Of a DNA stretch of 33,534 bases, positions 5,156 through 31,890 are shown piece after piece; position 1 is the stretch's first letter; every line of letters begins with the position of its first letter. The DNA comes from Nitrospirota bacterium (GTDB taxonomy: Bacteria; Nitrospirota; Thermodesulfovibrionia; Thermodesulfovibrionales; JdFR-85), in contig WFTX01000073.1 of assembly GCA_015485235.1 (NCBI GenBank), positions 1-33,534 on the forward strand. Reading direction: 5' to 3'. A model generated the notes under the pieces. That model saw only the letters and a list, made by a program, of their open reading frames with translations. It did no database searches and was not told the DNA's origin. The translations under genes were made by a program, and so were the position numbers.

Positions 5156-5213
5156 TGGTGGAATGTTTTTTGCTTTAATCTTTATTAGGGTAATATGTGA
5201 GGAAGGAGAAGAA

Positions 5214-8897: not shown

Positions 8898-9018
8898 GCT
8901 TCAATAAGTAATGTTGTCTGCATACAGACACCAAGAAAGCCCTTTTGTTGTTACTTTGCTGTTAGACGTCAATTAGGTGCTAAACTAAACGGGGAATAAA
9001 TAAGGAAGTTCTGACTTG

Positions 9019-11468: not shown

Positions 11469-11834
11469 ATGAATTTCGGAACGATTGAATATATATGCGA
11501 AGTGTCCGATAAGAATGAGAAGGGCTACAGGGTTTTGAACCTTACCCTTGTGGATGAGGAAGACGGTGATATCTTTAGGGAAAACGGACTCATGGAACTC
11601 AGACGCAGGCGGATATTGAGACTTGTGAGGGAGGCAGCCGAACAGGGTTGTACCCTTTCTTACGGTGACTTGGCAAAAATACTTCTCACCTCTGTTGCAA
11701 CCCTTAAAAGGGATATTGTGGTTCTGGAGAAGAGAGGGGAGTACATTCCGCTTCGGGGGAGGAGAAAATATCCCTTGGACGAGGGAGAGAAGAAAAAGGT
11801 TATATCTGATATGATAAAGGACAGGGTGGGATGA
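11469..11834 (+). CDS. DUF1670-like helix-turn-helix protein, repeat unit 2
   Basis: Same frame as the previous ORF, separated only by TAG-AGA. The core LRRRRILRLVREAAEQGCTLSYGDLAKILLTSVATLKRDIVVLEKRGEYIPLRG is present. The stop overlaps the next start (ATGA at 11831-11834). Confidence 0.7.
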   Translation: MNFGTIEYICEVSDKNEKGYRVLNLTLVDEEDGDIFRENGLMELRRRRILRLVREAAEQGCTLSYGDLAKILLTSVATLKRDIVVLEKRGEYIPLRGRRKYPLDEGEKKKVISDMIKDRVG

Positions 11835-14027: not shown

Positions 14028-14044
14028 TTATGAAAGGAGTCTTG

Positions 14045-15029: not shown

Positions 15030-15395
15030 TTGTACAGGGATTTCAGAGAAATGCCAGTCTGGCAAACAGCGATGCAGGTAGCAACAGAAATTTATGAATT
15101 GACAGAAGAATTACCCCGTAAGGAGGATTTTTGCTATACAACACAGATAAGGAAGGCTGCCCTGAGTATCCCGGCCAATATTGCAGAGGCATTTGGTCGT
15201 GAGCATAGTAAAGATAAAATTAACTTTTATTATTTTGCCAGGGGTTCGATAATGGAAACCATCAGTCACCTGGAGTACGGAAAGAGAGTTAATTATTTAA
15301 GTGAAGAAAGTGTCAGATCAATAAGTAATTTGCTTGAAACACTGGCTGCAGACCTGAACAAGTTGATAAAATCTCTAAGAAGTAATAAAGGGTGA
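15030..15395 (+). CDS. four-helix-bundle protein (TIGR02436 / 23S_rRNA_IVP family; Avd-like), TTG start
   Basis: The N-terminus YRDFREMPVWQTAMQVATEIYELT matches the family's YxDLxVWQKA-type start, which supports the TTG at 15030. Further matches: IRKAALSIPANIAEAFGR, FYYFARGSIMETISHLEY. Confidence 0.85.
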   Translation: MYRDFREMPVWQTAMQVATEIYELTEELPRKEDFCYTTQIRKAALSIPANIAEAFGREHSKDKINFYYFARGSIMETISHLEYGKRVNYLSEESVRSISNLLETLAADLNKLIKSLRSNKG

Positions 15396-15399: not shown

Positions 15400-16518
15400 A
15401 TGAGAAATTGTATTCATCATATACCAGTGAAACTTTCAACTTCTGCCGTTACCTTTTTCCTCTCCTTAACCTCAACCTTAACCTCAACCTTGGCCTTAAC
15501 CTTGGCCTCAACCTTGGCCTTAACCTTCGGTTTATTCTCCTGCTCTCCCCCGGTCCACCACGCCCAGATTGATGATTCTTACAGGGGAAAGCTCGTCTGG
15601 CCGCCACCACCTGAGAAGCCCCGGATAGAGTATCTCTGGTCCTTTTACAAGTTTCTGCCGGAAGGCAGAAACCTTGCCGACTATGTGGCAGGTGAACAGG
15701 GCGGCCTTGATGATCCGGCAACACTGCCCTATCTGATGAGACCGTTCTCGCTTTTTGTCAGAGAAGGCAGGATATATATTGTCGATCAGGGCCCTCCCCG
15801 GATTACAGTGCTAAATATGAAGACAAGGGAGGTGTCTCACTTCGGGGTTTCCGGTGAAGGCAAACTTGTTTTTCCAGTGGGCATAGTGGTTGGTGCCGAT
15901 GGGACCGTATATGTGAGCGATGCTGAGACAGGCAGGGTGAACAGGTATGACCGGCAGGGGAAGTTTATCGGATATCTCCCGGAAAAGATGGCATTCAGGA
16001 GACCGACAGGCCTCGGGATTGATTCTGAAGGCAATATCTATGTTGCCGATACATCAGCACACAGGATAAGGATATATTCACCGGACGGGAAACTTATCAG
16101 AAAGTTTGGTAAAAGGGGCAGCAAGGACGGGGAACTGAACTTTCCCACTCACCTCTGGGTCAAGGGTGAAAAGATATATGTCACAGATGCGATGAATTTC
16201 CGTATCCAGATATTCAACAAAGAAGGGCAGTTCCTGGGGAAGTTCGGACAACCCGGTGATACCTATGCCGATCTTGAAAGGCCCAAGGGTGTTGCAGTTG
16301 ACTCCTTTGGCCATATCTATGTGGTTGATACCCTTCAGGCAAGGGTGAAGATCTTTGACGAAAAGGGGAGGATCCTGCTCTTCTTCGGGGAAGAGGGCCG
16401 TTCCCCCGGAAAGTTCATAATGCCTGCTGGCATATTTATAGATGACAGTAATACAATATATGTTGCAGATACTTACAATATGAGGGTCCAGGCATTCAGG
16501 CTGCTGGACGGGAAGTAA
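15400..16518 (+). CDS. NHL-repeat lipoprotein, paralog 3; signal-peptide h-region encoded by a reversed M1 simple repeat
   Basis: The lipobox is TFGLFSC|S and the VWPPPPEKPRI motif follows. NHL repeats include PVGIVVGADGTVYVSDAETGRVNRY, PTGLGIDSEGNIYVADTSAHRIRIY, PKGVAVDSFGHIYVVDTLQARVKIF and PAGIFIDDSNTIYVADTYNMRVQAF. Residues LSLTSTLTSTLALTLASTLALT are translated from 15461-15538. Confidence 0.88.
   Translation: MRNCIHHIPVKLSTSAVTFFLSLTSTLTSTLALTLASTLALTFGLFSCSPPVHHAQIDDSYRGKLVWPPPPEKPRIEYLWSFYKFLPEGRNLADYVAGEQGGLDDPATLPYLMRPFSLFVREGRIYIVDQGPPRITVLNMKTREVSHFGVSGEGKLVFPVGIVVGADGTVYVSDAETGRVNRYDRQGKFIGYLPEKMAFRRPTGLGIDSEGNIYVADTSAHRIRIYSPDGKLIRKFGKRGSKDGELNFPTHLWVKGEKIYVTDAMNFRIQIFNKEGQFLGKFGQPGDTYADLERPKGVAVDSFGHIYVVDTLQARVKIFDEKGRILLFFGEEGRSPGKFIMPAGIFIDDSNTIYVADTYNMRVQAFRLLDGK
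15461..15538 (-). repeat. reversed GGTTGAGG-type module (M1); right inverted arm of four-helix-bundle cassette 2, lying inside the NHL paralog 3 ORF
   Basis: The sequence ctccttaacctcaaccttaacctcaaccttggccttaaccttggcctcaaccttggccttaaccttcgg has 6-nt periodicity. It is complementary to M1 copies at 15001, 13841, 16521 and 17496. Confidence 0.85.
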
Positions 16519-16671: not shown

Positions 16672-16692
16672 CCCATAGTGAGGTGTAAGTTA

Positions 16693-17481
16693 ATGAAGAA
16701 GGTGGTTAGCGCTGTTGTTACAGTGATTTTCATACTCTCGGTTGCGGTCGTGGTATGGGCCGGTATTGCAAATACAAAGCATAACCTCTCAGTAACCGGG
16801 CCGGGAACTATAAAGGCAGTAAGTGAGACGAGGATCTGTGTCTTCTGTCATACACCCCACGGTGCAAGCCCTGCAAGGCCCCTCTGGAACCATACATTGA
16901 GTTCCCAGACGTATACACTGCCTACTTCTTCAGACCCACAGTGGTCCAATCTCCTCACTACGGTCCAGCAGCCTGACGGGGACACAAGGCTCTGTCTGAG
17001 CTGTCACGACGGTACAGTGGCTATAGGTTCGGTAGTGAACCTTCCCGGTCCGGCAGGTGGCGCCGGTACAATATCCATGCAGGGTACAGCCGGTGGTCTC
17101 ATGCCACCAGCTGCTTATGGTTTTATAGGAACCGATCTCTCCGGCACACACCCCGTTTCCATTGCGATGAATGATGCCTTGATCAATGACAAGAATGCCT
17201 GCACACAGACCGGAGCTTACACGCTACAGTACCCTCCTGGAGGAGGGGCCGTCAGGCTGAGGCCAACGAGCAACACCTATAACGGTCAGCCCGGACAGTT
17301 GATAACTACTCCAACTGGTTTTACATACAATGGAGGGGTTCAGTGTACTTCGTGTCATGATCCCCATATTGAAACAACGGATTTCCTTGTCCTTGGTACA
17401 GGAAGTCCTGATCCCACAAAGGGGCATCCAGGCAACTGGTCTGCCCTGTGTGATACGTGTCACCCGGGTACATGTCCGTGA
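16693..17481 (+). CDS. small secreted tetrahaem c-type cytochrome, paralog B
   Basis: GTGAGGTG lies about 8 nt before the ATG at 16693. The signal is MKKVVSAVVTVIFILSVAVVVWA|G. Four CXXCH motifs: CVFCH, CLSCH, CTSCH, CDTCH. It shares the blocks KHNLS, CVFCHTPHGA, PLWN, CLSCHDG, NLPGPAGG, HPVS and CTSCHDPH with paralogs A and C. Confidence 0.92.
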   Translation: MKKVVSAVVTVIFILSVAVVVWAGIANTKHNLSVTGPGTIKAVSETRICVFCHTPHGASPARPLWNHTLSSQTYTLPTSSDPQWSNLLTTVQQPDGDTRLCLSCHDGTVAIGSVVNLPGPAGGAGTISMQGTAGGLMPPAAYGFIGTDLSGTHPVSIAMNDALINDKNACTQTGAYTLQYPPGGGAVRLRPTSNTYNGQPGQLITTPTGFTYNGGVQCTSCHDPHIETTDFLVLGTGSPDPTKGHPGNWSALCDTCHPGTCP

Positions 17482-17647: not shown

Positions 17648-18637
17648 ATGAAAAAAGCAATCAAAACAGTACTGCTGACAATAGCTGCTTTCATTATGGC
17701 TTCTTCAGGGATCAGGGCTGAGACTCCTACCCATCTCAATGGTTTCAAGGTAAAGTTTACCTGTGCAGCATGCCATAGCGGTCATGGTAAAAGAGGAACC
17801 CCGATGCTGCGGGAAGATGTCCCGGACCTTTGCTACGAATGTCACGGTCCTTCGGGTTACGCCTACTTTAATACTTCCAATGAGGTTTATTATGAATTCC
17901 TGAAGAGATACCGGCATCCTGTTGAAGAGACTGGAAGGTACCACAGACAGACTGAGATACTTCCGGAAAGGGAAAGGCTGGTTGAGAGACATGTGAGCTG
18001 CCTTGACTGTCATAATCCGCATGTTTCAACACCATCCGAGCCTAATGCCGGAGTCCCCGGTGAATCTCTGAACCGGATAAGGCAAAAGCCGGCGGAGAAT
18101 ATAAACGATATATGTTTCAAGTGCCATTCCGACAACTTGAATAGACCACCATCAAGCCTTGATGTCAAAGAAGAATTTGATACTTTAAATCCCTCATACC
18201 ATCCGGTACTGGGGGTTTCGAGAGGAAGGAGCGTAAGCGTTCTGCCTGAGCTGAAGGGAAAAACCATAGGATGTACAGACTGCCATACCCCCCATGGCTC
18301 GGATTATGAGGATATGCTTAGATACAATTATAACCGCTCAGATGGACCGGAAACAGCTTTTTCCTATGCACTGTGCTACCAATGTCACAAGAGAGATAAT
18401 ATACTTGGAGATCGGGGATTCAGCCAGCACAGGAGGCATATAGTTTTTGAAAACGCATCTTGCAGGGCCTGTCACATTGCCCATGGCAGCAGTGAAAATG
18501 CGAGGCTCATAGGCTTTGACCCTGCCATAGTTACTCCCAACTCACAGGGCATGCTTCTTTATGAAAGAATCGGAGGTGAAAGTCGTTGTTTCCTTCGCTG
18601 TCACGACACGGACCACAGGGGTGATAAGATCCAATAG
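17648..18637 (+). CDS. octahaem c-type cytochrome (7 CXXCH + 1 CX3CH), periplasmic-type
   Basis: The signal is MKKAIKTVLLTIAAFIMASSGIRA|E. Haem motifs are CAACH, CYECH, CLDCH, CFKCH, CTDCH, CYQCH, CRACH and the atypical CFLRCH at 18587-18604. Spacing between motifs is of the doubled-CXXCH type. Confidence 0.92.
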   Translation: MKKAIKTVLLTIAAFIMASSGIRAETPTHLNGFKVKFTCAACHSGHGKRGTPMLREDVPDLCYECHGPSGYAYFNTSNEVYYEFLKRYRHPVEETGRYHRQTEILPERERLVERHVSCLDCHNPHVSTPSEPNAGVPGESLNRIRQKPAENINDICFKCHSDNLNRPPSSLDVKEEFDTLNPSYHPVLGVSRGRSVSVLPELKGKTIGCTDCHTPHGSDYEDMLRYNYNRSDGPETAFSYALCYQCHKRDNILGDRGFSQHRRHIVFENASCRACHIAHGSSENARLIGFDPAIVTPNSQGMLLYERIGGESRCFLRCHDTDHRGDKIQ

Positions 18638-18980: not shown

Positions 18981-19691
18981 ATGAGAAGGAAGAAGATGTT
19001 AGAGAGGGCCCTGATCCTGACAGTGACTGTCTTCCTGGCTGTTTTGTTTCCATTACAGTCCTACGGTGGAGTGGCCGGCAGCAAGCATGATTTTTCAATT
19101 ACCGGCTCAAGTAACTTCAGCGGCACCTTCACCGGCGACGATGATGAGGTCTGCGTTTACTGTCATACCCCTCACGGTGCCCTCGGCTCACAGACCCCAC
19201 TATGGAACAAGGCGCTGACATTCAACAATGGCTTTACCATGTACAGCAGTTCTACCATGGATGCCACTGTACCGGGTCAGCCTTCCACGATATCCCTCCT
19301 TTGTCTCAGCTGCCATGATGGTATAGGTGCAATAAATGCAGTGCTTAATGCGCCTGGCCCCGGTGGTTCAATTACCGCCACTGGTGCTGACCAGATCGGA
19401 GACCTCGGTCCAATAGGAGACAGAATTAATATAGGCGGAGGGGATCCCGCAGCTCCCGGTCCGGTTGACCTGAGCAATGACCATCCTGTCTCAATACAAT
19501 GGGCACAGAGGGGGCCGGGTTTTTATGCCACACCCCAGGATCCAAGGCTTGTTCTTTATAACGGCCAGACTGTGGAGTGCACTACCTGCCATGATCCGCA
19601 TAACGGGACACCCTTTAACGCTGGAGAAGATGCATTCCTGAGGATGTCAAACCAGGGGAGCGCCATGTGTCTCTCCTGTCACATAAAATAA
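18981..19691 (+). CDS. small secreted tetrahaem c-type cytochrome, paralog C
   Basis: AAGGAGG lies 8 nt upstream of the start. The signal ends LFPLQSYG|GVAGSKHDFS. Four CXXCH motifs: CVYCH, CLSCH, CTTCH, CLSCH. It carries the same conserved blocks as paralogs A and B. Confidence 0.92.
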   Translation: MRRKKMLERALILTVTVFLAVLFPLQSYGGVAGSKHDFSITGSSNFSGTFTGDDDEVCVYCHTPHGALGSQTPLWNKALTFNNGFTMYSSSTMDATVPGQPSTISLLCLSCHDGIGAINAVLNAPGPGGSITATGADQIGDLGPIGDRINIGGGDPAAPGPVDLSNDHPVSIQWAQRGPGFYATPQDPRLVLYNGQTVECTTCHDPHNGTPFNAGEDAFLRMSNQGSAMCLSCHIK

Positions 19692-19752
19692 GTGAGTGAA
19701 ATCACGCAAATTGGGTAATTATACACAACAGGATTATTTAAGGAGGAAGAAG

Positions 19753-22422
19753 ATGGGCAAGAGCAAGAAAAGGCTGATGCAATTTCTGGTTGTACTGGCC
19801 GTTTTTTTAATGGCCGGGCTGGCCATTGCGGCTGATACTTATATTGGATCTGTTGATGTGCAGATGCCTTCAGACCTGGCAATTACCTCAGATGGCGGTT
19901 TTATCGTGGGTTCCAGCAAGATAGGGGGGGTGCTGGAGTTTGGTCCGTCTGGTGACCTTGAAGGAAGTAAAAATCTTGGTTTCAACCCTTCTGCTCTTGC
20001 CATAAGCCCATCGGGCAAAATATATGTAGGTATTGGGAAGTTTTCTGACCGGACTCCTGCGGACGGTAATACTCTTCTTGGTGAGGTCAGGGTATATGAC
20101 AGCGGTTACAACTATCTGTTCAGTCTGGGCTCAGGTGCAGGGGAGTTCGTCAATCCCGTCGATATAGCGATTGATCAGACGGGCCTTGCCTATGTTGTCG
20201 ATACTGCCTATGATGGTGTAAGGGTCTATAACACTGATGGAAGTTTTGCCTATTCTCTGTGGACAGACGGCTCCCTGAATATGCCTCTTGCAATCGGGAT
20301 AGACGATGCTACAGGAGAGATATATGTTGCAGACAGGCCCTTTGTGGCAGACAGCCATGGGGGGCTGGTCCCATCTGCCCGTGTACAGGCCTTTTCTGCT
20401 GATGGACAGTTCCTCCGGCTGATAACGATGAATGCCGACATGAGTGTTATTACGGAGGATGAGATAGCTCACCCTACAGATGTGGTTCCTTATCAGGGAA
20501 AGATGTATGTTACCGATACCCTTCAGAATGTAGTTCAGGTATACGATGCTTCTACTGGAAACTGGCTCTATGCCCTCTATGATGACCCGGCTATCTCAAT
20601 GAGGGTTCCTGTTTCAGCTGCAGTATCAGGAGATGGAATCCTGTATGTCTCTGCAGCTGTCTCTGACAGGGTTTACGAATTCGGTCTTGGTTCGTATGTG
20701 GCCTTTTCCGTGACGCCTTCGGCACTCTCATTCAGTGTTCCTGCAGGTCAGACCCTGCCGTCGCAGGATGTCACGGTAAGCAATGACGGAACCGGACAGC
20801 TCAGCTGGACCGCTTCAGCAGATCAGACATGGATAGTTCTTGGTTCTTCGTCCGGTCTCGTTGATGCCGGAGCAACGGCTACCCTGTCTGTAGGTATAGA
20901 CACCGCAGGACTTGCTCCCGGTGATTACACCGGTACTGTAACGGTTTCTTCGGCAGGTGGAACCAGCCATGCTGTCTCAGTCACCCTTACGGTAACACCG
21001 CCGCCCATTCTCTCCGTTACCCCATCACAGTTGAATTTTACCGCTGAAGAGGGTGGTTCCAGCCCGGCCTCCCAGGGGCTTGTAGTGAGCCTGACGAATG
21101 CCGGTCCGAACTCCTTCTGGAGTGCTTCCTCGGATGCCGCCTGGCTCAGTTTCAATCCTGTTCAGGCAGGTGCTGGTTCAACGGATGTATTTGTGAATGT
21201 CGATATCTCAGGCCTTGCTGCAGGTACATACACCGGCCATATCAGTTTTGAGTCGGCCGGGGCAGATGGTTCACCTGCCGTTGTGACTGTCGTGCTTGAT
21301 ATCGTCAACACCACTGTAGTAACGGTGACCACCAACCTTGCCGATGCAACATTCACCATAACCGGACCTGCCGACTACTCCGGTTCGGGTACCTCATGGA
21401 CTGTAACAGGTGCACCGGCAGGTGAGTATACTATCACCTATGGTGATGTGGCCGGATACAGGACTCCCGCCCCGGAGACGCAGGTGCTCGGTGCTGGCGG
21501 AACAGTTGCCTTTAATGGCCAGTACACGAGAGTAAGGGAGAGTATTGTAAATACGAGGGAAGGTGGAAAAAAGGCCCCGACGAGGGTTAAAATAACAGAC
21601 TCCGCGGGGAATGTCCAGGCTGACTTTATAGCCTTTCCCTCTTACCGTGGTGGAGTTGATACAGTCGTTGCGGACCTCAATGGGGATGGAGTAAACGAGA
21701 TAGTGGCTTCCCTGATTGGATATCCTGTTATTGGTGTATTTGACGGATCAGGCAACAGTCTGGTTGAGAACAAGACCTTCAAGGACGGTGGGGTATCCAT
21801 AACAGTTGCTGATCTGGACGCCGACGGTGATGCTGAAGTGATAGTGGCCAACAGGAAGACTTCCATAGTCAAGGTGCTTAACTTCCTTGGCATAACAAAG
21901 AAACAACTGGGGCTCAGGTTCGTAGCCTTTCCCGGGGTAATAGCCCCCAAGACGCTGATTGCCGCAGGCGATGTGGATGCCGACGGTCAGGTCGAGATAG
22001 TAACTGTGACCGGTCCGAAGAAAGAAAGAAAGCCACTGATGAGGATATGGGGCGTGGATACAGCGGGTCCCGACTGGATCGCCGTTCTTGAATCCGAGGC
22101 GGTGCTCCCATTCGGAAGGGTCTTCGGGATAGATGTGGATGATGTTGACGGCGATGGTGTTTCCGATATCATCGTGGCAAGTGGTGCCAGGGTTGCAGGG
22201 CTAAACATTGATGGTACTCTGGCCGATATATATGTGAGAGGTTCGGGATTCCGTGATGTAAGTGCAGGTGACCCCGATGGTGACGGGAACACGGAACTGG
22301 TTGTCGGCGCAAGGGGTGGCAATGTCATGATATTCGATATGACAGGCAATCCTGAGGGTGGTTACAGGGCGTTTAAAGTGAAATCAGGCGTCAGGGTCTC
22401 GACCGGCGCATTAGGATATTAA
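19753..22422 (+). CDS. secreted multidomain protein: N-terminal NHL-like beta-propeller, central Ig-like/BACON-like and PEGA-like beta domains, C-terminal FG-GAP/VCBS (integrin-alpha-like) repeats
   Basis: AAGGAGG precedes the ATG at 19753; the listed start at 19696 lacks support. The signal is MGKSKKRLMQFLVVLAVFLMAGLAIA|A. NHL-like blades include GEFVNPVDIAIDQTGLAYVVDTAYDGVRVY and MPLAIGIDDATGEIYVAD. Ig-like units include SVTPSALSFSVPAGQTLPSQDVTVSNDGTGQLSWTASAD and LSVTPSQLNFTAEEGGSSPASQGLVVSLTN. FG-GAP calcium-loop motifs: ADLNGDGVNEIV, ADLDADGDAEVIV, GDVDADGQVEIV, DDVDGDGVSDIIV, GDPDGDGNTELVV. Confidence 0.88.
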   Translation: MGKSKKRLMQFLVVLAVFLMAGLAIAADTYIGSVDVQMPSDLAITSDGGFIVGSSKIGGVLEFGPSGDLEGSKNLGFNPSALAISPSGKIYVGIGKFSDRTPADGNTLLGEVRVYDSGYNYLFSLGSGAGEFVNPVDIAIDQTGLAYVVDTAYDGVRVYNTDGSFAYSLWTDGSLNMPLAIGIDDATGEIYVADRPFVADSHGGLVPSARVQAFSADGQFLRLITMNADMSVITEDEIAHPTDVVPYQGKMYVTDTLQNVVQVYDASTGNWLYALYDDPAISMRVPVSAAVSGDGILYVSAAVSDRVYEFGLGSYVAFSVTPSALSFSVPAGQTLPSQDVTVSNDGTGQLSWTASADQTWIVLGSSSGLVDAGATATLSVGIDTAGLAPGDYTGTVTVSSAGGTSHAVSVTLTVTPPPILSVTPSQLNFTAEEGGSSPASQGLVVSLTNAGPNSFWSASSDAAWLSFNPVQAGAGSTDVFVNVDISGLAAGTYTGHISFESAGADGSPAVVTVVLDIVNTTVVTVTTNLADATFTITGPADYSGSGTSWTVTGAPAGEYTITYGDVAGYRTPAPETQVLGAGGTVAFNGQYTRVRESIVNTREGGKKAPTRVKITDSAGNVQADFIAFPSYRGGVDTVVADLNGDGVNEIVASLIGYPVIGVFDGSGNSLVENKTFKDGGVSITVADLDADGDAEVIVANRKTSIVKVLNFLGITKKQLGLRFVAFPGVIAPKTLIAAGDVDADGQVEIVTVTGPKKERKPLMRIWGVDTAGPDWIAVLESEAVLPFGRVFGIDVDDVDGDGVSDIIVASGARVAGLNIDGTLADIYVRGSGFRDVSAGDPDGDGNTELVVGARGGNVMIFDMTGNPEGGYRAFKVKSGVRVSTGALGY

Positions 22423-22437
22423 AAGGGGGTGTTAATT

Positions 22438-25400
22438 ATGGCATCGAGTTCAGGAATGAAAAAGAGAAAGCAGATGATCCTTTTCGCAATCGGTATAATA
22501 CTCTGTTTTATACCTGGCCTTGCACTGGGGGCTGTAAACCCGCCTCATACTGCCGGCGCTAACTGTGACTCCTGTCATTTTACTTATTCCAGTACTCCGG
22601 CCTGGTGGACAAATCCGCCTGCAGACCTTGACGACACACCCAAGAACCGTCTCTGTCTGAACTGTCATGATGATGTAACTGCCCCCAAAAAGAAAACACA
22701 CTCCTCCCTTGCAACCGGGTCCACCAAATATGGTGACTGGACTAATGAGTGTGTTACATGCCATGACCCCCATATGCAGAGACAGATATATAATAATGAA
22801 TTTCCTCCCGCCCTGACAGGAACGATCACAGCAGTTGATGGTGCCACCAATACATTCACACTGAGTATAACTCTCCCTGACAGGACGGGGGATTCGGATC
22901 CTACCAATGATTATGCCGGGTGGACAATAGTTCCAAATACAAAGTACAAGATAGTAAACTACAAGATAGCCTCCAATACGGCAAACACGGTAACAGTAAC
23001 TACAGCCATTAATACCGCACGTGTCTCCGTTGGTTCCACCTTCGGAATTCTGTATGGCAAATATATCAAGGAACTTGTTTATACCCCTAACAGCGGTCCC
23101 AAATATGTGAAGTTTTACGAGACAGAGAACGGTCCTCACTCATATATTAATAATGATGGTCTTGCTGGCGGTCAGGACAGCACCCCCGACGGAATATGTC
23201 AGGTCTGCCATACCCAGACTTCAAGGGCAAGGAACGATGGTACAGGATTCGGCGACGGTCATCCTACGGATACGTCGGCGAACTGCCAGGCCTGTCACGA
23301 CCATGCAACAGCTGGCTTTGCAGGCATAGGCGGTTGTACAAACTGTCACGGCTATCCGCCTGTAGACGATACGACGCTTGTATTTAAAGACAAAAATGGT
23401 ATAAGTGTTACCTCAAGTTCGACAGGAGGTAACCCCGGCGCAGGTGCTCACAGTGCTCATATCTCAGCGGGGCTTGACTGTGTAAACTGTCATACCGGCG
23501 GTATGCTTGGAGGGGCATCCCAGGGTAACAATAATATTGATATAGGTTTTTTCCTTGGTTCGAACCTCGGTGGTACATATGACGGCCAGCCGAACCCGCC
23601 TAAATCAGTCTTTCCCCTTAATGCAGGCGGGACCACGACAATCACAACAGGCGGCTCATACGGGTGCTCCAGCGTTTACTGTCACAGCAATGTTCAGGGG
23701 CAGACGGACGGAACCGGAGGCCCTACGGTTTACGGAAACCCAGTCTGGAACAACGCTGCCTCAGTACAGTGCGGTTCCTGTCACAATGCGGACGGTGTTC
23801 AGGGTGACGCATCGCTGATGAGCAGCGGCTCTCATACCACGCATGTGGGGGCACCGCTGAGCAAACAGTGCAACGAATGCCATAATGGTGCCGGATCGGG
23901 GACGACGGTTCATGTGAACAACAATATCAACCTGGCCTTTCAGGCTGACCCGTTCAGTGCTTCGGGTTCTTACAGCCAGTCACCGAATACCCCGGGCAAC
24001 GGTTACGGTTCCTGTTCCAGCGTTTACTGTCACAGTACGGTTCAGGCTGATGGTGGCTCCAATGCCCCGACCTATGCGAATCCCACATGGGGAGGCACGG
24101 TCGCGTGTGGCGACTGCCACAACGCAGACGGTGTGCAGGGTAATGCTACCATCATGAGCACCGGCAGTCATACAAAGCACGCTTCAACATACGGTTTTGC
24201 CTGTTCAACCTGCCATAATGGCGCGGGTTCCGGCACTGCGAAGCATGCCGATAAGAACATAGATATCATTATTGATACGTTATACGGGGCCTCGGCCTCA
24301 TATTCCCAGATGCCTTCCAATGCGCCGGGCAACGGTTATGGTGCATGTTCAACCGTTTATTGCCACAGTAACGGAAAGGTGAACGATACAGGTTCAGCAG
24401 TCGGTCAGTATGCCTCCCCCAACTGGGGAACCGACAACGGTACGCTTACCTGCACGTCATGTCACGGAACAGGCGGTACAAGCCAGGTGGGTGAGCCTGA
24501 CTATGCCAATGCAGGCGCCGGGGCAGTGGATGCCAACAGCCACTCTCCGCACATAAGTTCCCTCGGGGCAAGCACTATATCATGTAACAAGTGCCACAGC
24601 CAGACGGTTGATGTCGCCGGTGCGATTGATATAGCAGGCGGCAAGCACGTCAACCTGACCAAGGATGTGGTCTTCTCTGATGGCGGTACCTACACTGCTT
24701 CAACCAAGACCTGTTCAACCACGTACTGTCATGGAACCGGTACCCCCCAGTGGGGAGGAACGGTTGCCTGCGGTGACTGTCATGCGGTAAACAATACACT
24801 TGCCTCCAAACATCCAACACACTATTCAACAGCAACGAACGCCACTGTAACAGACAGGACAACGGCTGCCAACAACTCAACCACAACCAGCTATGTATTC
24901 TCCTGTGCGGTCTGTCACAATGGTGCGAGCCATGCCGGAGGTGCAGTAGGCGGAGGCCAGACGGCAGAAATAACTTTTGACGGCACGGTTGCTGGTGGTG
25001 GAACATATACGGCAGGTGGCACGACAACCACCGATCCAAACGGGTTTGATTATACCAACGGTTCCTGCTCAACCACTTACTGTCACAGCAATGGTAACGG
25101 GGGTGCTCCTAATGTTACGCCCTCATGGGATTCTGCAGTCACTCTTGACTGTAAGAGCTGCCACAACTACACGGCAGCCTCGGGTACGCCGATGGCATCC
25201 GGCAGCCATACGGCTCACATAAACGACGGTACTGTAATGACAAACAAGTCTTGCGAGGACTGTCATAATGCCACGACCACGGATGGAACTACCATAGCCG
25301 ACAAGACAAAACATGTTAACCATACAAAAGACGTAGTGCTTTCCTCAACCTGGGGTGGTTCATACACTTCTGGTGCCTGTTCTACCTCATACTGTCACAG

Positions 25401-27570
25401 TAATGCTACTTCTTTAACCTCACCATACGGTGCACCTAATACAGATCTTGTCTGGGGTACAGGCACTGCTGACTGCTCAAGCTGCCATACAGGACCACCA
25501 ACAGGACCTGACTACACCAATGGAAGCCCAAAGGCAAACAGTCATTCCACCCATACTGTAACAAACAGCTTCAACTGCATAGAGTGTCACAACTCGACCG
25601 TTGACAACGCAAATAACATCGCAACACCTGCCAATCACCTGAACCAGACATACGATGTAAGCGGAGCAGAGATTGGCTCATACACATCTAATACAAAGAC
25701 CTGTAATACCGTTTACTGTCATGGCTCCACCCTCACGGCAGGGGCCGATACTTCTCCGACGTGGGGCACCACGGTTACCTGCGGCGACTGCCACGGTGCA
25801 TCAGCTACAACACCGCCGACGGCTGGTTCCCATGAGCGCCATGCCGGGAGCGGAACCTTCGGAACCGGGCAGCAGGGGCTTGGACTGGCCTGTACCGAGT
25901 GTCATGGCACAACTGCAGGTGGTACAGGGCACGTGAACAAAGATGTTTCCTGGGATCTCTCAGCGATAGATACTGCTGCAACATATCAGGGCCTGAACAG
26001 CGGCTCTACCGGTGCAAAGGCCCCGAGCGGAACCTATGGAAGCTGTAACAATGTTTACTGTCACAGTGACGTTCAGGCAGACGGTGGTAATGCTGGACCT
26101 CAGAACTATGCAACCCCCACATGGGGTGGCTCGGTCACCTGTGACTCCTGCCACGGCACGGCAGGTAACGGCGATGGTCAGCCTGCAACGGGAAGCCATA
26201 CTGCCCATGTGGCAAACAACTCCTTTGCATGCAGCACCTGCCATAATGGTGCAGGCGATGAAACAACACTTCATGCAAACCAGACCATAAACATATCCAT
26301 AGATACAGCTTACGATGCAGGCGCAGCAGCTTACTCTCAGGGCAGCCATACACCTGGAAGTGGCGGCTATGGTTCATGTTCCAGTATCACCTGTCATGGA
26401 AGCGGCACCCCGACCTGGGGTGGTACGGTAACCTGCCAGGACTGCCACCTTGGCACAGGTGATGTGGATGACTACACCTTCAGTAATTTCGGCAGCGGTA
26501 TGACTATGGCCCAGATTGACTCTACGGAGTGGACTTCCACAGGCCATGGCAGAACGACGGGAACATACAATGTCTCAGGAAACGCAGCCGCAGGGCTCTC
26601 CTGCGAGTACTGCCATGATGATACAGTAGCACATGGTACAAGCACCAACCCGTTCCGCCTTGCAAACTACAATGCCGGCGGTAACGGCTGGAACGATACC
26701 TGTTTTGCCTGTCACCAGACCGGCTCGACCGGGTATGATCCTGATGGTGCAGGCCCGCTTGCTCTGAAAAATTCCACACTCAAGATAGACAAGTATCATT
26801 ACGGTACAAAGCACGGCGCAACCAATGACGGCGGCTCCCTCTGCTTTGACTGTCATGATCCGCACGGTGACAGCAACATCTACATGATCCACGACAATGT
26901 GACCAAGGACAAGGCAGACACATACGGTACTCCTTCAACAACAGGAGCACCGGTCTTTACTGCAAACACCACGGGTACAGACTATGCCAAGTCATCTGCA
27001 CCGTTTAACGGTGTCTGTAATGTCTGCCATACAACGACAAACCACTACACCTCCTCAAGCGGTGACGGCCATAACAGCGGCACGAAGTGTACCACCTGTC
27101 ATACTCACAGCGGTGATACCACCGTTGACGGTAACGCCTTCTCACCGCAGGGTGGTGCCTGTAATGCCTGTCACGGCTACCCGCCGACCATTGGTGATGG
27201 CAAGGCCTACATGGATGGTGTCGGTGAGTCCAAGGGTGCCCATACCCAGCATGTGAACCACCTCCTGAACCTCACGGGTTACACCCTTGATCCGCAGAAC
27301 GACTCTTTCGGTGATGCCAAGTGGCAGGCGATATGTGGTACATGCCATTACGGTGCAACCCATGAAACGAATCTTGCAGGTCAGACTGACAACTCTTCTG
27401 CAAGACATATACAGGTTGATCCTCAGTACCAGTTCGATCCTGTGAATCTACCGACCTATAACGGAGTGCCTGGAACCAGCTCAACTGTGAACCTGAAGTC
27501 CTGCTCGAGTGTGAGATGTCACTTCAAAGACTCACCGGGCTGGCAGGATCCGGCAACGGCGGGACAATAA
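22438..27570 (+). CDS. giant secreted multihaem c-type cytochrome (~1710 aa; about 31 CXXCH + 10 CX4CH) built from CxxxxCH...CXXCH modules (TIGR01904-like)
   Basis: AAGGGGGTG precedes the ATG at 22438; GTG 22429 and ATG 22456 are alternative starts. The signal ends ...GIILCFIPGLALG|A. Modules recur: GYG(S/A)C(S/N)(S/T)(V/T)YCH...WGGTV(A/T)CGDCH...GSHTxH...CSTCHNGAG. CxxCHGYPP motifs lie at both ends. Composition is strongly G/T/S/N-rich. Motif counts are by hand. Confidence 0.93.
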   Translation: MASSSGMKKRKQMILFAIGIILCFIPGLALGAVNPPHTAGANCDSCHFTYSSTPAWWTNPPADLDDTPKNRLCLNCHDDVTAPKKKTHSSLATGSTKYGDWTNECVTCHDPHMQRQIYNNEFPPALTGTITAVDGATNTFTLSITLPDRTGDSDPTNDYAGWTIVPNTKYKIVNYKIASNTANTVTVTTAINTARVSVGSTFGILYGKYIKELVYTPNSGPKYVKFYETENGPHSYINNDGLAGGQDSTPDGICQVCHTQTSRARNDGTGFGDGHPTDTSANCQACHDHATAGFAGIGGCTNCHGYPPVDDTTLVFKDKNGISVTSSSTGGNPGAGAHSAHISAGLDCVNCHTGGMLGGASQGNNNIDIGFFLGSNLGGTYDGQPNPPKSVFPLNAGGTTTITTGGSYGCSSVYCHSNVQGQTDGTGGPTVYGNPVWNNAASVQCGSCHNADGVQGDASLMSSGSHTTHVGAPLSKQCNECHNGAGSGTTVHVNNNINLAFQADPFSASGSYSQSPNTPGNGYGSCSSVYCHSTVQADGGSNAPTYANPTWGGTVACGDCHNADGVQGNATIMSTGSHTKHASTYGFACSTCHNGAGSGTAKHADKNIDIIIDTLYGASASYSQMPSNAPGNGYGACSTVYCHSNGKVNDTGSAVGQYASPNWGTDNGTLTCTSCHGTGGTSQVGEPDYANAGAGAVDANSHSPHISSLGASTISCNKCHSQTVDVAGAIDIAGGKHVNLTKDVVFSDGGTYTASTKTCSTTYCHGTGTPQWGGTVACGDCHAVNNTLASKHPTHYSTATNATVTDRTTAANNSTTTSYVFSCAVCHNGASHAGGAVGGGQTAEITFDGTVAGGGTYTAGGTTTTDPNGFDYTNGSCSTTYCHSNGNGGAPNVTPSWDSAVTLDCKSCHNYTAASGTPMASGSHTAHINDGTVMTNKSCEDCHNATTTDGTTIADKTKHVNHTKDVVLSSTWGGSYTSGACSTSYCHSNATSLTSPYGAPNTDLVWGTGTADCSSCHTGPPTGPDYTNGSPKANSHSTHTVTNSFNCIECHNSTVDNANNIATPANHLNQTYDVSGAEIGSYTSNTKTCNTVYCHGSTLTAGADTSPTWGTTVTCGDCHGASATTPPTAGSHERHAGSGTFGTGQQGLGLACTECHGTTAGGTGHVNKDVSWDLSAIDTAATYQGLNSGSTGAKAPSGTYGSCNNVYCHSDVQADGGNAGPQNYATPTWGGSVTCDSCHGTAGNGDGQPATGSHTAHVANNSFACSTCHNGAGDETTLHANQTINISIDTAYDAGAAAYSQGSHTPGSGGYGSCSSITCHGSGTPTWGGTVTCQDCHLGTGDVDDYTFSNFGSGMTMAQIDSTEWTSTGHGRTTGTYNVSGNAAAGLSCEYCHDDTVAHGTSTNPFRLANYNAGGNGWNDTCFACHQTGSTGYDPDGAGPLALKNSTLKIDKYHYGTKHGATNDGGSLCFDCHDPHGDSNIYMIHDNVTKDKADTYGTPSTTGAPVFTANTTGTDYAKSSAPFNGVCNVCHTTTNHYTSSSGDGHNSGTKCTTCHTHSGDTTVDGNAFSPQGGACNACHGYPPTIGDGKAYMDGVGESKGAHTQHVNHLLNLTGYTLDPQNDSFGDAKWQAICGTCHYGATHETNLAGQTDNSSARHIQVDPQYQFDPVNLPTYNGVPGTSSTVNLKSCSSVRCHFKDSPGWQDPATAGQ
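23665..26400 (+). repeat. nine tandem ~110-120-aa CX4CH...CXXCH...CXXCH modules inside the giant cytochrome gene
   Basis: The CX4CH cysteines fall at codons 413, 529, 640 and 762, continuing to 1317. Modules 1 and 2 share long DNA identities, for example tccagcgtttactgtcacag at 23668 and 24016. Confidence 0.8.
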
Positions 27571-27584: not shown

Positions 27585-30500
27585 ATGAGAGCTAAAATGG
27601 AGATGAACAGGACAGACGGAACGATGAGGACGGAGATCATGGACATAAACCAGAGGATGCAGGGCACTCTCCCTGCATCCTCCAACGAAATCAACGAAAT
27701 CAACCAAATGAACGAAATCAACGAGATCAACGAGATGAACCAAATAAACCAAATCAACGAAAGTGAGGTGAGGACGGTCATGGGAGGAATCTTCGGTAGG
27801 AGGAATCATAAAACTAAGAACGTCGAACTCAGAACGTGGAACGTTGAACGTTTTTCCTTTGTTATTCTCCTGGCTGTCCTGGCCATGGTGATGATGTTTG
27901 GAGGAGCAATACCGCCTGCATCTGCGTATAATGCCGGTGATGTGATCTATGTAAATGCCACAGTGAGCAACTATTGTCCAAATGGTTCGCAATTTGACCT
28001 GATAGTGACCTTGACAGACTTCTATGGAAATCCTGTCACCGGACTTTCCAGTGATAACAAAAACTATGGATTAATTCTAAAGAATATTAAAGATAGTGCC
28101 AAGGCGAATGTAAGTTACACAGGTTTTATTGTTAATACGCAGAATACAAACGCCTGGACTGAGATTGGTAATGGCCAGTATAAGCAGACAGGGACTATCA
28201 CAAGCGGTACAGATCCTGTATATTTTGATCTTGAATACCGAGACCCTAATAATACTAACTACAAGATGAAAGCAGCAGTTATGATAAATCGTCAGGGGGC
28301 GTGTTCAGGTACAAATCCCGGCATTCTCGACTCTGCGCCTGATTATACCTATTACCCCATCCCGACTGGTACAGTGGTTATTAAAGCCCGACTGAAAAAC
28401 CAGGACGGTACAGCCCATGCAGGTGCAAACTGCCCAACGGGTTATGATGATGCAAACAAATGGGGCGGTGGTACTGCTGATACCTTATATATTAACAACC
28501 TGAAAGATGTGAATAATAACAATGCTACCTCATGGTCAGTTACAGGCTGTACAGATAATGGGGATGGTACATATGATATCACATTAAATTACGATGTTAC
28601 CGGGACAAATGATCCGGAAATATGGTTGCCCGAACTGAGGTACGATTGGGATAGTGCTGCTAATATAAAAATGACCACAGTGGCCGCCTTCGAGGTTAAC
28701 TCAACTCAGGCACCTACCAATCCAACGGGTACACCTCCGGCAAATCCAGGATGCCCTGAATGTACAGCGCCTGCTGATACCACACCTCCCACCGAAGGCA
28801 CACTGTCCATCAGTCCCGATGATGGCACATACACAGGCCCTGATTTTACCATCACAGAAGACTTTACAGACAATGAGTCAGCCGTTACCTCCTGTGAATA
28901 CACCATTGATGGTGGAACAAACTGGGCTGCCGGAACGGTAAGCGGCACGGGGCCCTATACCTGTACAGCCAATGTGACAGGTGCAACAGGGACCGTGACA
29001 GTACAGATGAGAGCAACCTCTGCTGGAGGTACAAGTACTCCAACAAATACAATAACAAGAACTGTGGACAGCACTCCTCCGACAGACGGCACTCTTACGG
29101 CCGTTCCTGGCAATACACAGATAAGCCTGTCTTGGACTGCTGCTTCTGATACCGAGAGCGGGCTTGATGCAACTAATCCTTATAAACTTGTAAGGGCAAT
29201 TGGAGCAACTCCCCCGGCTGACTGTACTGGTGCAGCCCTGTACCAGGGCACTGCACTGACTTTCACAGATACAGGGCTGACTAATGGGCAGCAGTACTCT
29301 TACAGGGTCTGTGCATACGATGCCATGGGTAATGTGTCAGCGGGCGCCACTGCTTCAGCAACGCCTCAGGCATGCCAGGCTACTGCACCGACAGACCTTG
29401 CGGCAACCAATGTCACTTCAAGCAAGGTTGACCTTACATGGACTTACGATGGAACCAACAACGATTACTACAGTGTATATCGTGATGGAGTTCAGATAGC
29501 AACGAATATAACAACGGGCAGTTACTCAGATACGACTGTCTCCCCTAATACTACTTACAACTACACTGTCCGTGGTTACAACAACGCAGGTACATGTGAG
29601 AGTGGCGACTCGAACGTGGTGAACGTCACCACGCCAGCAGGCCCCACATATACTGTCACTTCCTGCTCCGACTGTCATGACTATCCGCCGACAGATGCGA
29701 CGGGAGGGAGGAATACCCCCGTTGGAGCGGTTATAGGTTCCCATGACATTCATGTAAACCAGAACGGGCTGGCCTGTACAACGTGCCATATCGACAATGG
29801 GACGAACCTTGCTCACAGGAATAACCAGATAGACATCAATGCAAGTATCCAGGGTGGCAGTTATTCCACCACTGATCCGGACTTTCCATCCCAGGATATT
29901 GAGGACGGTACAGGACTCGGCAGTTGTGTCACCACGAACTGTCATGGCTCTTCATCCCCTGTCTGGGGGAATAATACTGCGACACCGACCTGCTACAAGT
30001 GCCACGGTACCCAGGCAAACGGCAATAACGCCCCGCCTGTCGACACGAACGGCGATACAGCAGCAACAGACCCTCAGGTCGGCGCTCACCAGGCACACCT
30101 CCAGGCTACGGACAACTATTCAAGCCCGATAGCCTGTAACGAGTGCCATACGGTACCAACCAATGTGTTTGATACTGGACATATTGACTCTGCCCTACCT
30201 GCTGAACTCACCTTCGGAACCCTTGCAACCACGAATGGTGCGACTCCGTCCTATACTGGCGGGACATGCTCAAACACCTACTGTCATGATGAAGCCAACT
30301 TCAAGAATGCCTGGGGTACTGGTACGCCTCCGACATGGAACGACACGACTTATATACAGGGTACATCGGCCGACTGTTCCCAGTGCCACGGCTACCCGCC
30401 CGGCGGCGGCCATCCTGCTAATGCTACCAACTGTACATCCTGTCACAGTCATGTGAATTCTACAAATGATGGATTCACTGATCCCACCCTGCATGTAAAT

Positions 30501-31835
30501 GGCCTTGTAGAGGGTGGTGGAGACTGCCTCGGATGCCATCTTGACTCGCAACAGGGGACTTCAAGGCGTGCTGTGAGAGGAGATTTCCTGAAGACCTCAC
30601 ACCATGTTGCCACCGGTGCCCCGACAGATGTTCTGACCTGTGAGGCATGTCACGGGGATCTTCTTACTGATCAGGGACATCCCGGGACTGCTACAACAGA
30701 CCCGATTACTCAGGTAGAGGATGCTGATACGGCCGGTACCTATTACAGTATTGATCCTTCTACTGCAGATGCCAATCTTGCCACTTTCTGTCTGAGCTGC
30801 CACGATGCAGACGGTGCTGCCAGGCTCGGGGCCAATGCAACCCAGCCCTTTGCTGACTCAGGTGATACCACTACGCCTCCGAACATCAACCTTGCCTGGA
30901 CAAATACAGTAAATCACAGTGCAAATGCTACCTGTAACGACTGCCACGGTGACAACAACGCTGCAGGCACATCCCTTGATCCGACTTATAATCTCCATGG
31001 GAGCTCAAATGCGAAGCTCCTGAGAGAGGCCACTGAATACGACACCTGTGTAACCAGCGGTTGTCACGGCTCAGGCGGTTCGGCTACTACTGACATGACC
31101 GTTGAACTTTCGGGAATATATGGTAAACATCCTATCGGTTCTGCAGTGACCCCGAAATCCGGGTTCCTTTCGCAGGACACTGCCGGTGACCTCTTTGTAA
31201 ACGGCTGGATGTACAATTCCGTAGCCCAGTGTTCCGACTGTCACGGTATGAACCAGGCTGGATCAAATAACGTGGGACCGAGAGGACCTCATGGTTCTGC
31301 CTATACTTACATGCTCAGAGGCGTGGATACATCGATCAATACTGTAACCTCCGGAAGGACCTATGGAACTGTCCAGAACAGCTCGATGACTGGAACATAT
31401 ACCCGGGAAAACTTCTGTGTAAACTGCCATGCCTCCGACATTTACGGTGATGGTAATGACGGTATCCCTTCGCAGGCTAATACAGTACAGCAATCAATTA
31501 ACGCCAATAAGAACTTCATTCACTACAGCACGTTCCGGACTGGCCGTTGTGGTACTCCTGCAGGCGGAGCGGCAGGAGCAGGTAATAAAAGTAATGTCGG
31601 CTGCAGGAACTGTCATGCTGGACTTGGCACAGATAAGAACTACGGAGCACACAGCTCCAACACGAACGGGCTTGAATTTACCGGCAATGTCGGCGGAAAG
31701 TGGTATGGCTGGGGAACCGGCTTCATGAACGGTGATTCCTGGTCAAGTGCACCAAATGCAGCCTCAAGCGGTAAATGCTATGCAAATGTAGGTACTACCA
31801 CATGGAATACCTGTAACAAGGGTATACACAATTAA
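27585..31835 (+). CDS. giant secreted chimeric protein: Ig-like / fibronectin-III-like N-terminal half plus C-terminal multihaem cytochrome (13 CXXCH + 3 CX4CH)
   Basis: The ORF is open from the ATG at 27585, but codons 1-65 cover a hairpin and a 9-nt simple repeat. The ATG at 27780 has GAGGTGAGG upstream and gives the signal ...FSFVILLAVLAMVMMFGGAIPPASA|Y, so it is the more likely start. Two FN3-like units lie at about 29070-29640 (ISLSWTAASDTESGL...YSYRVCAYDAMGN; VDLTWTYDG...YNYTVRGYNNAG). The haem region runs from 29664 and includes CSDCHDYPP, CSNTYCH and CSQCHGYPP. Confidence 0.9.
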   Translation: MRAKMEMNRTDGTMRTEIMDINQRMQGTLPASSNEINEINQMNEINEINEMNQINQINESEVRTVMGGIFGRRNHKTKNVELRTWNVERFSFVILLAVLAMVMMFGGAIPPASAYNAGDVIYVNATVSNYCPNGSQFDLIVTLTDFYGNPVTGLSSDNKNYGLILKNIKDSAKANVSYTGFIVNTQNTNAWTEIGNGQYKQTGTITSGTDPVYFDLEYRDPNNTNYKMKAAVMINRQGACSGTNPGILDSAPDYTYYPIPTGTVVIKARLKNQDGTAHAGANCPTGYDDANKWGGGTADTLYINNLKDVNNNNATSWSVTGCTDNGDGTYDITLNYDVTGTNDPEIWLPELRYDWDSAANIKMTTVAAFEVNSTQAPTNPTGTPPANPGCPECTAPADTTPPTEGTLSISPDDGTYTGPDFTITEDFTDNESAVTSCEYTIDGGTNWAAGTVSGTGPYTCTANVTGATGTVTVQMRATSAGGTSTPTNTITRTVDSTPPTDGTLTAVPGNTQISLSWTAASDTESGLDATNPYKLVRAIGATPPADCTGAALYQGTALTFTDTGLTNGQQYSYRVCAYDAMGNVSAGATASATPQACQATAPTDLAATNVTSSKVDLTWTYDGTNNDYYSVYRDGVQIATNITTGSYSDTTVSPNTTYNYTVRGYNNAGTCESGDSNVVNVTTPAGPTYTVTSCSDCHDYPPTDATGGRNTPVGAVIGSHDIHVNQNGLACTTCHIDNGTNLAHRNNQIDINASIQGGSYSTTDPDFPSQDIEDGTGLGSCVTTNCHGSSSPVWGNNTATPTCYKCHGTQANGNNAPPVDTNGDTAATDPQVGAHQAHLQATDNYSSPIACNECHTVPTNVFDTGHIDSALPAELTFGTLATTNGATPSYTGGTCSNTYCHDEANFKNAWGTGTPPTWNDTTYIQGTSADCSQCHGYPPGGGHPANATNCTSCHSHVNSTNDGFTDPTLHVNGLVEGGGDCLGCHLDSQQGTSRRAVRGDFLKTSHHVATGAPTDVLTCEACHGDLLTDQGHPGTATTDPITQVEDADTAGTYYSIDPSTADANLATFCLSCHDADGAARLGANATQPFADSGDTTTPPNINLAWTNTVNHSANATCNDCHGDNNAAGTSLDPTYNLHGSSNAKLLREATEYDTCVTSGCHGSGGSATTDMTVELSGIYGKHPIGSAVTPKSGFLSQDTAGDLFVNGWMYNSVAQCSDCHGMNQAGSNNVGPRGPHGSAYTYMLRGVDTSINTVTSGRTYGTVQNSSMTGTYTRENFCVNCHASDIYGDGNDGIPSQANTVQQSINANKNFIHYSTFRTGRCGTPAGGAAGAGNKSNVGCRNCHAGLGTDKNYGAHSSNTNGLEFTGNVGGKWYGWGTGFMNGDSWSSAPNAASSGKCYANVGTTTWNTCNKGIHN
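27653..27682 (+). other. perfect 12-bp hairpin (gaggatgcaggg / ccctgcatcctc, 6-nt loop) between the two giant cytochrome genes
   Basis: Hand-checked complementarity between 27653-27664 and 27671-27682. No T-tract follows, so it is not a classical terminator. It shares the CCCTGC core with the hairpin module at 3423-3445. Confidence 0.7.
27684..27760 (+). repeat. 9-nt periodic simple repeat (AACGAAATC)n, about 8.5 units
   Basis: The units read aacgaaatc aacgaaatc aaccaaatg aacgaaatc aacgagatc aacgagatg aaccaaata aaccaaatc aacga. If coding, this translates as NEINEINQMNEINEINEMNQINQINE. Confidence 0.85.
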
Positions 31836-31853: not shown

Positions 31854-31890
31854 AAAAAAGGGCGGGTCTGGAACCCGCCCTTTTTCTTTT
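31854..31890 (+). terminator. Rho-independent terminator closing the cytochrome operon
   Basis: An 8-bp GC stem pairs gggcgggt (31860-31867) with acccgccc (31873-31880). It is extended by a flanking A-tract and T-tract (aaaaaa ... tttttcttttt). Confidence 0.88.

Follow-up and report, generated by a model that had tools for sequence, protein, structure and literature searches.

We analysed a 33,534-nucleotide (nt) contig, WFTX01000073.1, of a Nitrospirota bacterium (hereafter the window), with the focus on one forward-strand gene at 22438-27570. Its product, called the giant here, carries 41 haem-binding motifs in 1710 amino acids (aa) and is, with near certainty, a multihaem c-type cytochrome of the TIGR01904/PF09698 CxxxxCH/CxxCH family. 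Each haem motif can be matched to one conserved candidate distal ligand, and the gene stands between those of an NHL/FG-GAP protein and a second large cytochrome, in a trio that recurs elsewhere. We propose, with a probability of roughly 0.6, that the giant and these partners form an extracellular electron conduit, the distal part of an extracellular electron-transfer pathway.

Haem motifs, candidate axial ligands and layout of the giant

The gene is a single unbroken open reading frame (ORF) that begins at either a GTG (22429) or an ATG (22438) and runs through 27570, with the frame intact across 1710 codons. Because a Shine-Dalgarno (SD)-like AAGGGGGTG precedes ATG 22438, we favour this codon over the GTG as the start, and the length of the database protein (P0001, 1710 aa) is consistent with this choice. 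A look-up of the protein by its exact sequence found nothing on record. Residue numbers given here run from ATG 22438. The mature protein would have a mass of ~171.5 kDa as the apoprotein and ~197 kDa with 41 haems included.

Motif counting gave 31 CXXCH and 10 CX4CH sites, in agreement with the approximate hand count in the original prediction, which was made from the sequence alone; a scan of the protein for CX3CH and CXXCK found none. When the giant was shuffled 2000 times with its composition preserved, the mean number of CXXCH was 0.21 (maximum 3) and that of CX4CH was 0.19 (maximum 4). All but one of the 83 cysteines lie inside haem motifs, the sole exception being C23, within the signal peptide. 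These figures confirm the motif number and put it well outside what chance would give. The NCBIfam model TIGR01904.2 matches nine stretches of the protein (244.5 bits versus a cutoff of 27), which upholds the earlier reading of its CxxxxCH...CXXCH units as members of TIGR01904, and the Pfam model PF09698 matches seven (97.1 bits versus a cutoff of 21.7). Other parts are matched by PF14537 and PF14522, the latter (cytochrome c7 and related) in three stretches. The protein had also been described as rich in Gly, Thr, Ser and Asn and poor in hydrophobic residues, and this too is borne out: G+T+S+N make up 44% of the residues, and ILVFMW 14.7%.

The features of the gene and its product, all on the forward strand, are as follows.

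22424-22432, +, Shine-Dalgarno-like AAGGGGGTG, with 6-nt spacing to ATG 22438, read from the sequence
22438-27570, +, giant cytochrome gene, 1710 aa, 41 haem motifs
22438-22530, +, Sec signal peptide, aa 1-31, with KKRK n-region, hydrophobic core and a cleavage site between ALG and A
22531-23622, +, N-terminal head, aa 32-395, with seven CXXCH, seven conserved free His and matches to PF14537 and PF14522
22774-23196, +, Cys-free insert in the head, ~140 aa (aa 113-253), with no haem site
23623-26334, +, eight triheme modules CX4CH..CXXCH..CXXCH, aa 396-1299, from the module alignment
23623-23970, +, module 1 (m1)
23971-24303, +, module 2 (m2)
24304-24669, +, module 3 (m3)
24670-25023, +, module 4 (m4)
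25024-25335, +, module 5 (m5)
25336-25659, +, module 6 (m6)
25660-26001, +, module 7 (m7)
26002-26334, +, module 8 (m8)
26335-27567, +, C-terminal cap, aa 1300-1710, with 10 haem motifs, nine conserved free His and invariant Met1483

The top Kyte-Doolittle window of the giant covers aa 13-31, and since 19-residue windows past aa 40 reach no more than 0.98, there is no second hydrophobic segment. Lipoprotein anchoring was considered and rejected, as the giant has no lipobox and the signal peptides of its homologues have no conserved Cys. Within the head, a gap of 149 residues separates motif His109 from motif His258. The array was originally described as nine modules. Repeats of the form CX4CH..CXXCH..CXXCH do begin at aa 413 (GTG numbering), the position of the first CX4CH, and are 104-122 aa in length, but only eight are full triheme units. 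What had been taken as the ninth is a CX4CH+CXXCH pair with which the conserved cap opens. Across modules 1-8 and in the opening pair of the cap, a CXXCH follows each CX4CH after 17-33 residues, and alignments A1 and A2 show no variation in the Cys and His of either motif type. A2, which covers the cap in 20 sequences, has a mean column identity of 45% and many invariant Cys and His. Cap motifs present in the giant include FCWDCHDPHGD, CHGYPP and a terminal CX4CH-F, which closes the protein as CSSVRCH-F (nt 27502-27522). As had been noted, CxxCHGYPP motifs stand at both ends of the array, which is flanked by CTNCHGYPP (nt 23335-23361) and CNACHGYPP (nt 27160-27186).

A total of 48 His residues lie outside the haem motifs. 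In the head, seven motifs are accompanied by seven free His conserved at 0.80-1.0 in an alignment of 55 homologous heads (H37, 0.98; H88, 1.0; H112, 1.0; H275, 0.8; H289, 0.87; H338, 1.0; H341, 1.0). His37 belongs to an A-x-(N/D)-x-P-H motif (nt 22531-22551, aa 32-38) directly after the predicted signal cleavage site and, six residues past that site, probably serves the first haem as its distal ligand. Modules 1-4 each hold exactly three free His, an SH..H pair and the His of H-x-N, conserved at 0.68-1.0 in 25 sequences; the same SH..H and H-x-N motifs are seen in modules 5-8, as judged from an alignment of modules within the giant. The 10 motifs of the cap are accompanied by nine free His conserved at ≥0.85, along with the invariant Met1483 (20 sequences). 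Hence, there is one candidate distal ligand per haem throughout the giant, 40 His and one Met. These data argue for a role in electron transfer rather than catalysis. Judging from these residues, the 41 haems are probably all six-coordinate, leaving no obvious open catalytic site; haem occupancy and bis-His ligation are predictions of the same kind.

Module history and integrity of the assembly

Modules 1 and 2 had been said to share near-identical DNA, from which recent duplication was deduced, and tandem DNA repeats had been taken to make the gene prone to assembly collapse or expansion. The comparisons do not bear this out. Modules 1 and 2 are 56% identical in nucleotides and 51% in amino acids, with the same codon used at 43% of the identical residues, and pairwise identities among all modules of the giant are 42-57% (nt) and 26-55% (aa). 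Exact direct repeats within the gene reach 20 nt at most, and the best extended matches (34 nt at 88% and 52 nt at 83%) both lie near the CX4CH motif. Tandem Repeats Finder detected no module-length array in the gene, just two short rows with a 15-nt period and about two copies each, and on this basis we rejected the term 'tandem DNA repeat' for it.

The age of the modules can be gauged from relatives. A Thermodesulfovibrio sp. protein (P0002), encoded in a metagenome-assembled genome (MAG) on JALUAR010000090, resembles the giant in family, layout, cap and flanking genes and differs in its module set. The two proteins are collinear, with 42% identity in the head and 64-92% in modules 1-6 and the cap; orthologues of modules 1-6 are 64-85% identical and keep their order. 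In P0002 an additional module follows m5 and the m7-m8 pair is missing, so the comparison of module number that had been proposed reveals differences among homologues. Orthologues of modules 4-6, again in order, are found in P0003 (77-88% identity), and orthologues of m7-m8 in P0004 (63-67%). Orthologues thus differ by gain or loss of whole modules. Because orthologous modules are 64-88% identical, compared to 26-55% among the modules of the giant, the duplications must be older than the lineage split.

This bears on whether the ORF or its module count might be an artefact, either a chimera or the product of repeat collapse or expansion in a short-read MAG. Such an error would be easiest to imagine in a repetitive protein whose homologues vary by whole modules, as is the case here. 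However, no exact repeat exceeds 20 nt, which is below usual assembly k-mers, and the modules share no more than 42-57% nucleotide identity. The reading frame is intact over its full length, the head, modules 1-6 and cap occur in P0002 in the same order, and the two modules absent from P0002 have orthologues in P0004. Given these short repeats and the collinearity with independent assemblies, we regard an artefact as highly improbable.

The conserved trio and its possible role

The giant gene is flanked closely on both sides.

19696-22422, +, upstream partner, 908 aa, Cys-free, secreted, with NHL, BACON/Ig-like and FG-GAP repeats (Pfam)
27585-31835, +, downstream partner, a second large cytochrome, 1416 aa, with 13 CXXCH, three CX4CH and fn3
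31855-31885, +, strong intrinsic-terminator-like hairpin, a 13-bp stem followed by a T run, which ends the transcription unit

The stop codon of the upstream partner lies 15 nt ahead of the giant's ATG, the gap to the second cytochrome is 14 nt, and both cytochrome genes have good SD sites; the three genes are probably co-transcribed. In L001 and L003 the gene directly upstream of the giant's is an orthologue of the upstream partner (36% and 33% identity, respectively), and the second cytochrome is kept downstream in L001, L003 and L005. The whole trio is found with its order kept in a Thermodesulfovibrio MAG contig and a JGI metagenome contig, and likewise in a Geobacteraceae MAG (L005), where an 868-aa NHL/Ig-like protein, a 1900-aa giant and a second cytochrome follow one another. 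The C-terminal 450 aa of the second cytochrome are 32-42% identical (E 1e-28 to 1e-32) to C-terminal extensions of giants elsewhere, and four giants (P0018, P0024, P0033 and P0091; Geobacter pickeringii is included) are fused to this domain. This Rosetta-stone pattern supports the idea that the giant and the second cytochrome work together.

The start of the second cytochrome is placed at 27585 or possibly 27780. A 9-nt tandem repeat (27683-27762), made up of ~9 copies of AACGAAATC-like units, would encode (NEI/NQM)n at the 5' end of this gene. With the start at 27780 instead, after GAGGTGAGGA, the protein would have a normal signal peptide and the repeat would fall in a leader. Rfam and tRNA scans of the window returned nothing, and hence there is no sign of a riboswitch like those seen upstream of some Geobacter cytochromes.

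How might these proteins act? The giant would be exported via Sec and carry 41 covalently bound haems as a non-catalytic, all-low-spin electron carrier. With its two partners it would form a conduit at the cell surface or outside the cell, at or beyond the outer membrane, and this conduit may store charge as well. It would extend an outer-membrane pathway comprising the MtrA-like and small 'doubled CXXCH' cytochromes, NHL propellers and peptidyl-prolyl isomerase (PPIase) encoded nearby, and would serve insoluble acceptors or donors, or partner cells. The FG-GAP, BACON/Ig-like and NHL domains of the upstream partner are typical of extracellular proteins, which, together with its lack of Cys, supports such a conduit. 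The linear geometry of the giant, its extracellular location and its physiological electron acceptor or donor are inferred.

Several observations weigh against this proposal. The localisation is a prediction, and no secretion-system gene or sorting signal was seen in the window. The candidate porin (11831-13822, below) matches no family and is missing from the related loci, and the hematite-binding-type motif [ST]P[ST] is not enriched in the giant (5 observed versus 4.2 expected). Phmmer found no chain in the Protein Data Bank (PDB) related to the giant. AlphaFold2 models built in the absence of haems had a mean predicted local distance difference test score (pLDDT) of 52 and a predicted template modelling score of 0.40 for modules 1-4 (25-row alignment) and a mean pLDDT of 35 for the cap (20-row alignment), and a Foldseek search of the PDB with the low-confidence module model gave 0 matches. 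As the alignments were thin and haems were absent from the modelling, these failures are silent on a stacked-haem rod, either way. To our knowledge, no member of the giant CxxxxCH/CxxCH family has a demonstrated function or a solved structure. Finally, among the systems whose gene content most resembles that of the window, the SEEP-SRB1 operon is stated to be of unknown function (PMC5539420).

One alternative is that the giant is periplasmic, where it would act as an electron store (a capacitor) or as a wire between quinol oxidases of the inner membrane and a conduit in the outer membrane. Its signal peptide is accompanied by no recognisable onward sorting signal, the window lacks secretion genes, and periplasm-spanning or capacitor roles have been proposed for the 21-27-haem PCC3 and other large cytochromes (PMC10734462, PMC11492766). 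On the other hand, 41 haems in line would outrun the periplasm as quoted, 170 Å compared to 350 Å for a 27-haem relative (PMC11492766), and the co-conserved partners carry FG-GAP, BACON/Ig and fn3 domains of extracellular type. On balance, we consider a periplasmic role unlikely. Less probable still, by a wide measure, is that the giant is a catalytic multihaem oxidoreductase (e.g. a metal, sulfur or nitrogen-oxide reductase) whose haem chain feeds an active site. Profile searches do give weak matches to NrfA-type nitrite reductases (E about 5e-6), one cap haem may have Met instead of His as its distal ligand, and the head contains a 140-aa non-haem insert. But the NrfA matches are confined to paired CXXCH segments and score 25-29 bits, neither CXXCK nor any other unusual proximal ligand is present, Pfam and NCBIfam identify no catalytic domain, and every haem motif has its own conserved candidate distal ligand. 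More generally, the only matches from the two profile searches of the PDB were weak ones to paired-CXXCH segments of NrfA, reaction-centre cytochromes, c554 and UndA; as these are driven by the CXXCH pairs, we did not accept them as evidence of homology.

Returning to the extracellular conduit, it is plausible that the giant acts as a single-polypeptide wire, an idea already published for relatives. OmcS and MtrA span roughly 0.8 nm per haem, and at this spacing the haem chain of the giant would be ~32 nm long if linear. Related giants are predicted to be long single-chain wires with 27 haems over about 350 Å (PMC11492766), and scaling from these would give ~53 nm, again if the chain is linear. 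A bolder version, and one we hold to be rather unlikely, is that the conserved head and cap serve as docking sites at either end of the array, which would itself be a length-adjustable wire, with whole modules added or dropped to give from 22 to 111 haems, the NHL/FG-GAP partner holding the wire and the second cytochrome continuing it. Such an adjustable wire would set the cell's reach from the outer membrane for delivering or collecting electrons, and the window would then encode a Nitrospirota single-polypeptide wire of ~30-55 nm for which polymerisation is unneeded.

Relatives, comparable systems and the surrounding cytochrome island

Genome mining brought giant CxxxxCH/CxxCH cytochromes to light years ago, and NCBI's annotation pipeline already gives them a name. 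The present protein is another member of this already catalogued family, and its repeats are old. A search of 5.8 billion proteins with the giant gave 703 matches at E≤1e-10, many of them 1500-3000 aa in length and annotated as 'CxxxxCH/CxxCH domain c-type cytochrome'. Their sources are Nitrospirae/Nitrospiraceae, Thermodesulfovibrionales, Geobacter, Geotalea, Anaeromyxobacter, Desulfuromonas and Deferrisomatales. At species level the nearest genome match is a Thermodesulfovibrio sp. MAG, and the best matches point to a Thermodesulfovibrionia-like host within the Nitrospirota. A cap profile run against 1.84 billion representatives matched 425 clusters at E≤1e-30 and 964 at E≤1e-10, with proteins up to 5341 aa. 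Across 245 retrieved relatives, which stem from Nitrospirota, Geobacter and Anaeromyxobacter, the number of haem motifs has a median of 38 (interquartile range 27-51, maximum 111), and 45% of them carry at least 41. The giant is thus a mid-sized member of its family, and its 41.7 residues per haem are similar to the median of 44 in the relatives. A literature search for TIGR01904 found no papers. Proteins with 53, 69 and 87 motifs have been reported in Desulfuromonadia, a record of 113 is also given, and CX4CH is listed among known haem-binding motifs (PMC11492766). One named relative, the 'cytochrome c, 53 heme-binding sites' of Geotalea daltonii FRC-32 (P0099), is 28% identical to the giant and shares its domain family, head/array/cap layout and cap; it differs in its long C-terminal extension, whose relative in the window is part of a separate downstream gene.

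A parallel in concept exists with the single-polypeptide 'nanowire' cytochromes of Desulfuromonadia (Soares et al. 2024, BMC Genomics, PMC11492766), which also have tens of haems per chain and for which low secondary structure, a place outside the cell and a length greater than the width of the periplasm are predicted, as for the giant. The likeness is one of concept and not of an established sequence family, the host here belongs to another phylum, Nitrospirota, and the published models are predictions. GSU1996-type dodecahaem 'nanowire' proteins, built of c7 repeats (TIGR04257, nanowire_3heme), likewise place tandem triheme units in one polypeptide. In contrast, the giant's repeat is 104-122 aa with CX4CH as its first site and has no PDB relative by sequence or profile; TIGR04257 does not match the giant at E≤0.01, and the generic c7-like PF14522 alone does. 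OmcS, OmcE and OmcZ filaments share the role proposed for the giant, long-range extracellular electron transport along stacked haems, but they are polymers of 4-8-haem subunits whereas the giant is one long chain. Phmmer and the two profile searches detected no similarity between the giant and PDB chains of the OmcS/OmcE/OmcZ type, and because its haems and conserved ligands correspond one to one, no inter-subunit ligand is needed. Of the models for MtrC/OmcA decahaem outer-surface cytochromes, neither TIGR03507 nor PF22113 (MtrC/MtrF domain II/IV) matches the giant; PF22113 does match the second cytochrome (55.4 bits). The 16-haem + 26-haem operon of SEEP-SRB1 and Ca. Desulfofervidus (PMC5539420) and the Uet and PCC3 systems (PMC10734462) resemble the window in their gene ingredients, namely six-bladed NHL propellers, a SurA-like PPIase, 'doubled CXXCH' tetrahaem cytochromes and very large cytochromes. 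The likeness seen here is one of gene content, and the porin in the window is a candidate only.

To the family the window adds a Nitrospirota member, evidence for a one-to-one match of haem motifs and conserved axial ligands, and evidence for a trio (giant, NHL/FG-GAP protein and second cytochrome) that is kept in different phyla and, in some species, is partly fused. For further study of the family, Geobacter species that can be cultured and genetically manipulated offer a better system through their homologues than an uncultured MAG.

The trio belongs to a wider island of cytochrome genes, all on the forward strand.

3965-5155, +, 15-haem cytochrome, DmsE/MtrA-like, with PF09699 in seven stretches
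11831-13822, +, candidate outer-membrane beta-barrel, 663 aa, ending in RLTRPFWF, an aromatic C-terminus of outer-membrane-protein type, and with alternating residue patterns in the protein
14030-15007, +, SurA-like PPIase
15030-15395, +, four-helix-bundle protein (TIGR02436, 118 bits), between the PPIase and NHL genes
15400-16518, +, NHL propeller
16678-17481, +, 4-haem cytochrome of the 'doubled CXXCH' type
17648-18637, +, 8-haem cytochrome of the same type
18981-19691, +, 4-haem cytochrome of the same type

The order propeller, 4-haem, 8-haem, 4-haem recurs in L003. The 663-aa ORF could be a novel porin of the electron conduit. It has no Pfam or NCBIfam match, and BLAST found no counterpart in L001 or L003; the similar-sized 661-aa ORF of L001 is a cytochrome. 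An Asn/Gln-rich low-complexity stretch occupies aa 205-250 of the 663-aa product. The 15-haem cytochrome scores 161.8 bits against TIGR03508, below the cutoff of 192.2. These two products are the window's candidates for the porin and the periplasmic MtrA/DmsE-family cytochrome of trans-outer-membrane conduits of the Mtr, Pcc, PCC3 or Uet type.

Some further observations concern the same region. Over the window as a whole, exact direct repeats reach 28 nt at most (at 4104 and 4401), and this repeat lies in the gene for the 15-haem cytochrome and not in that of the giant. The ORF of this cytochrome is overlapped by 206 nt by an NHL-propeller ORF (4950-6236) at the latter's mechanically called start, and the true start of the propeller is probably further downstream. 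At the edge of the island, positions 1470-2405 encode a protein of the FGE-sulfatase (formylglycine-generating-enzyme) family (217.7 bits). Multi-pass membrane proteins are encoded near giants both in the window (22-1287 and 9016-10809) and in Geobacter sp. OR-1 (L006, 2166-3992), and some of them combine TPR repeats with a PMT/GT-C-like N-terminal region. Given these neighbours, the Thr/Ser/Asn-rich composition of the giant and its 29 N-x-S/T sequons, glycosylation of the giant is conceivable.

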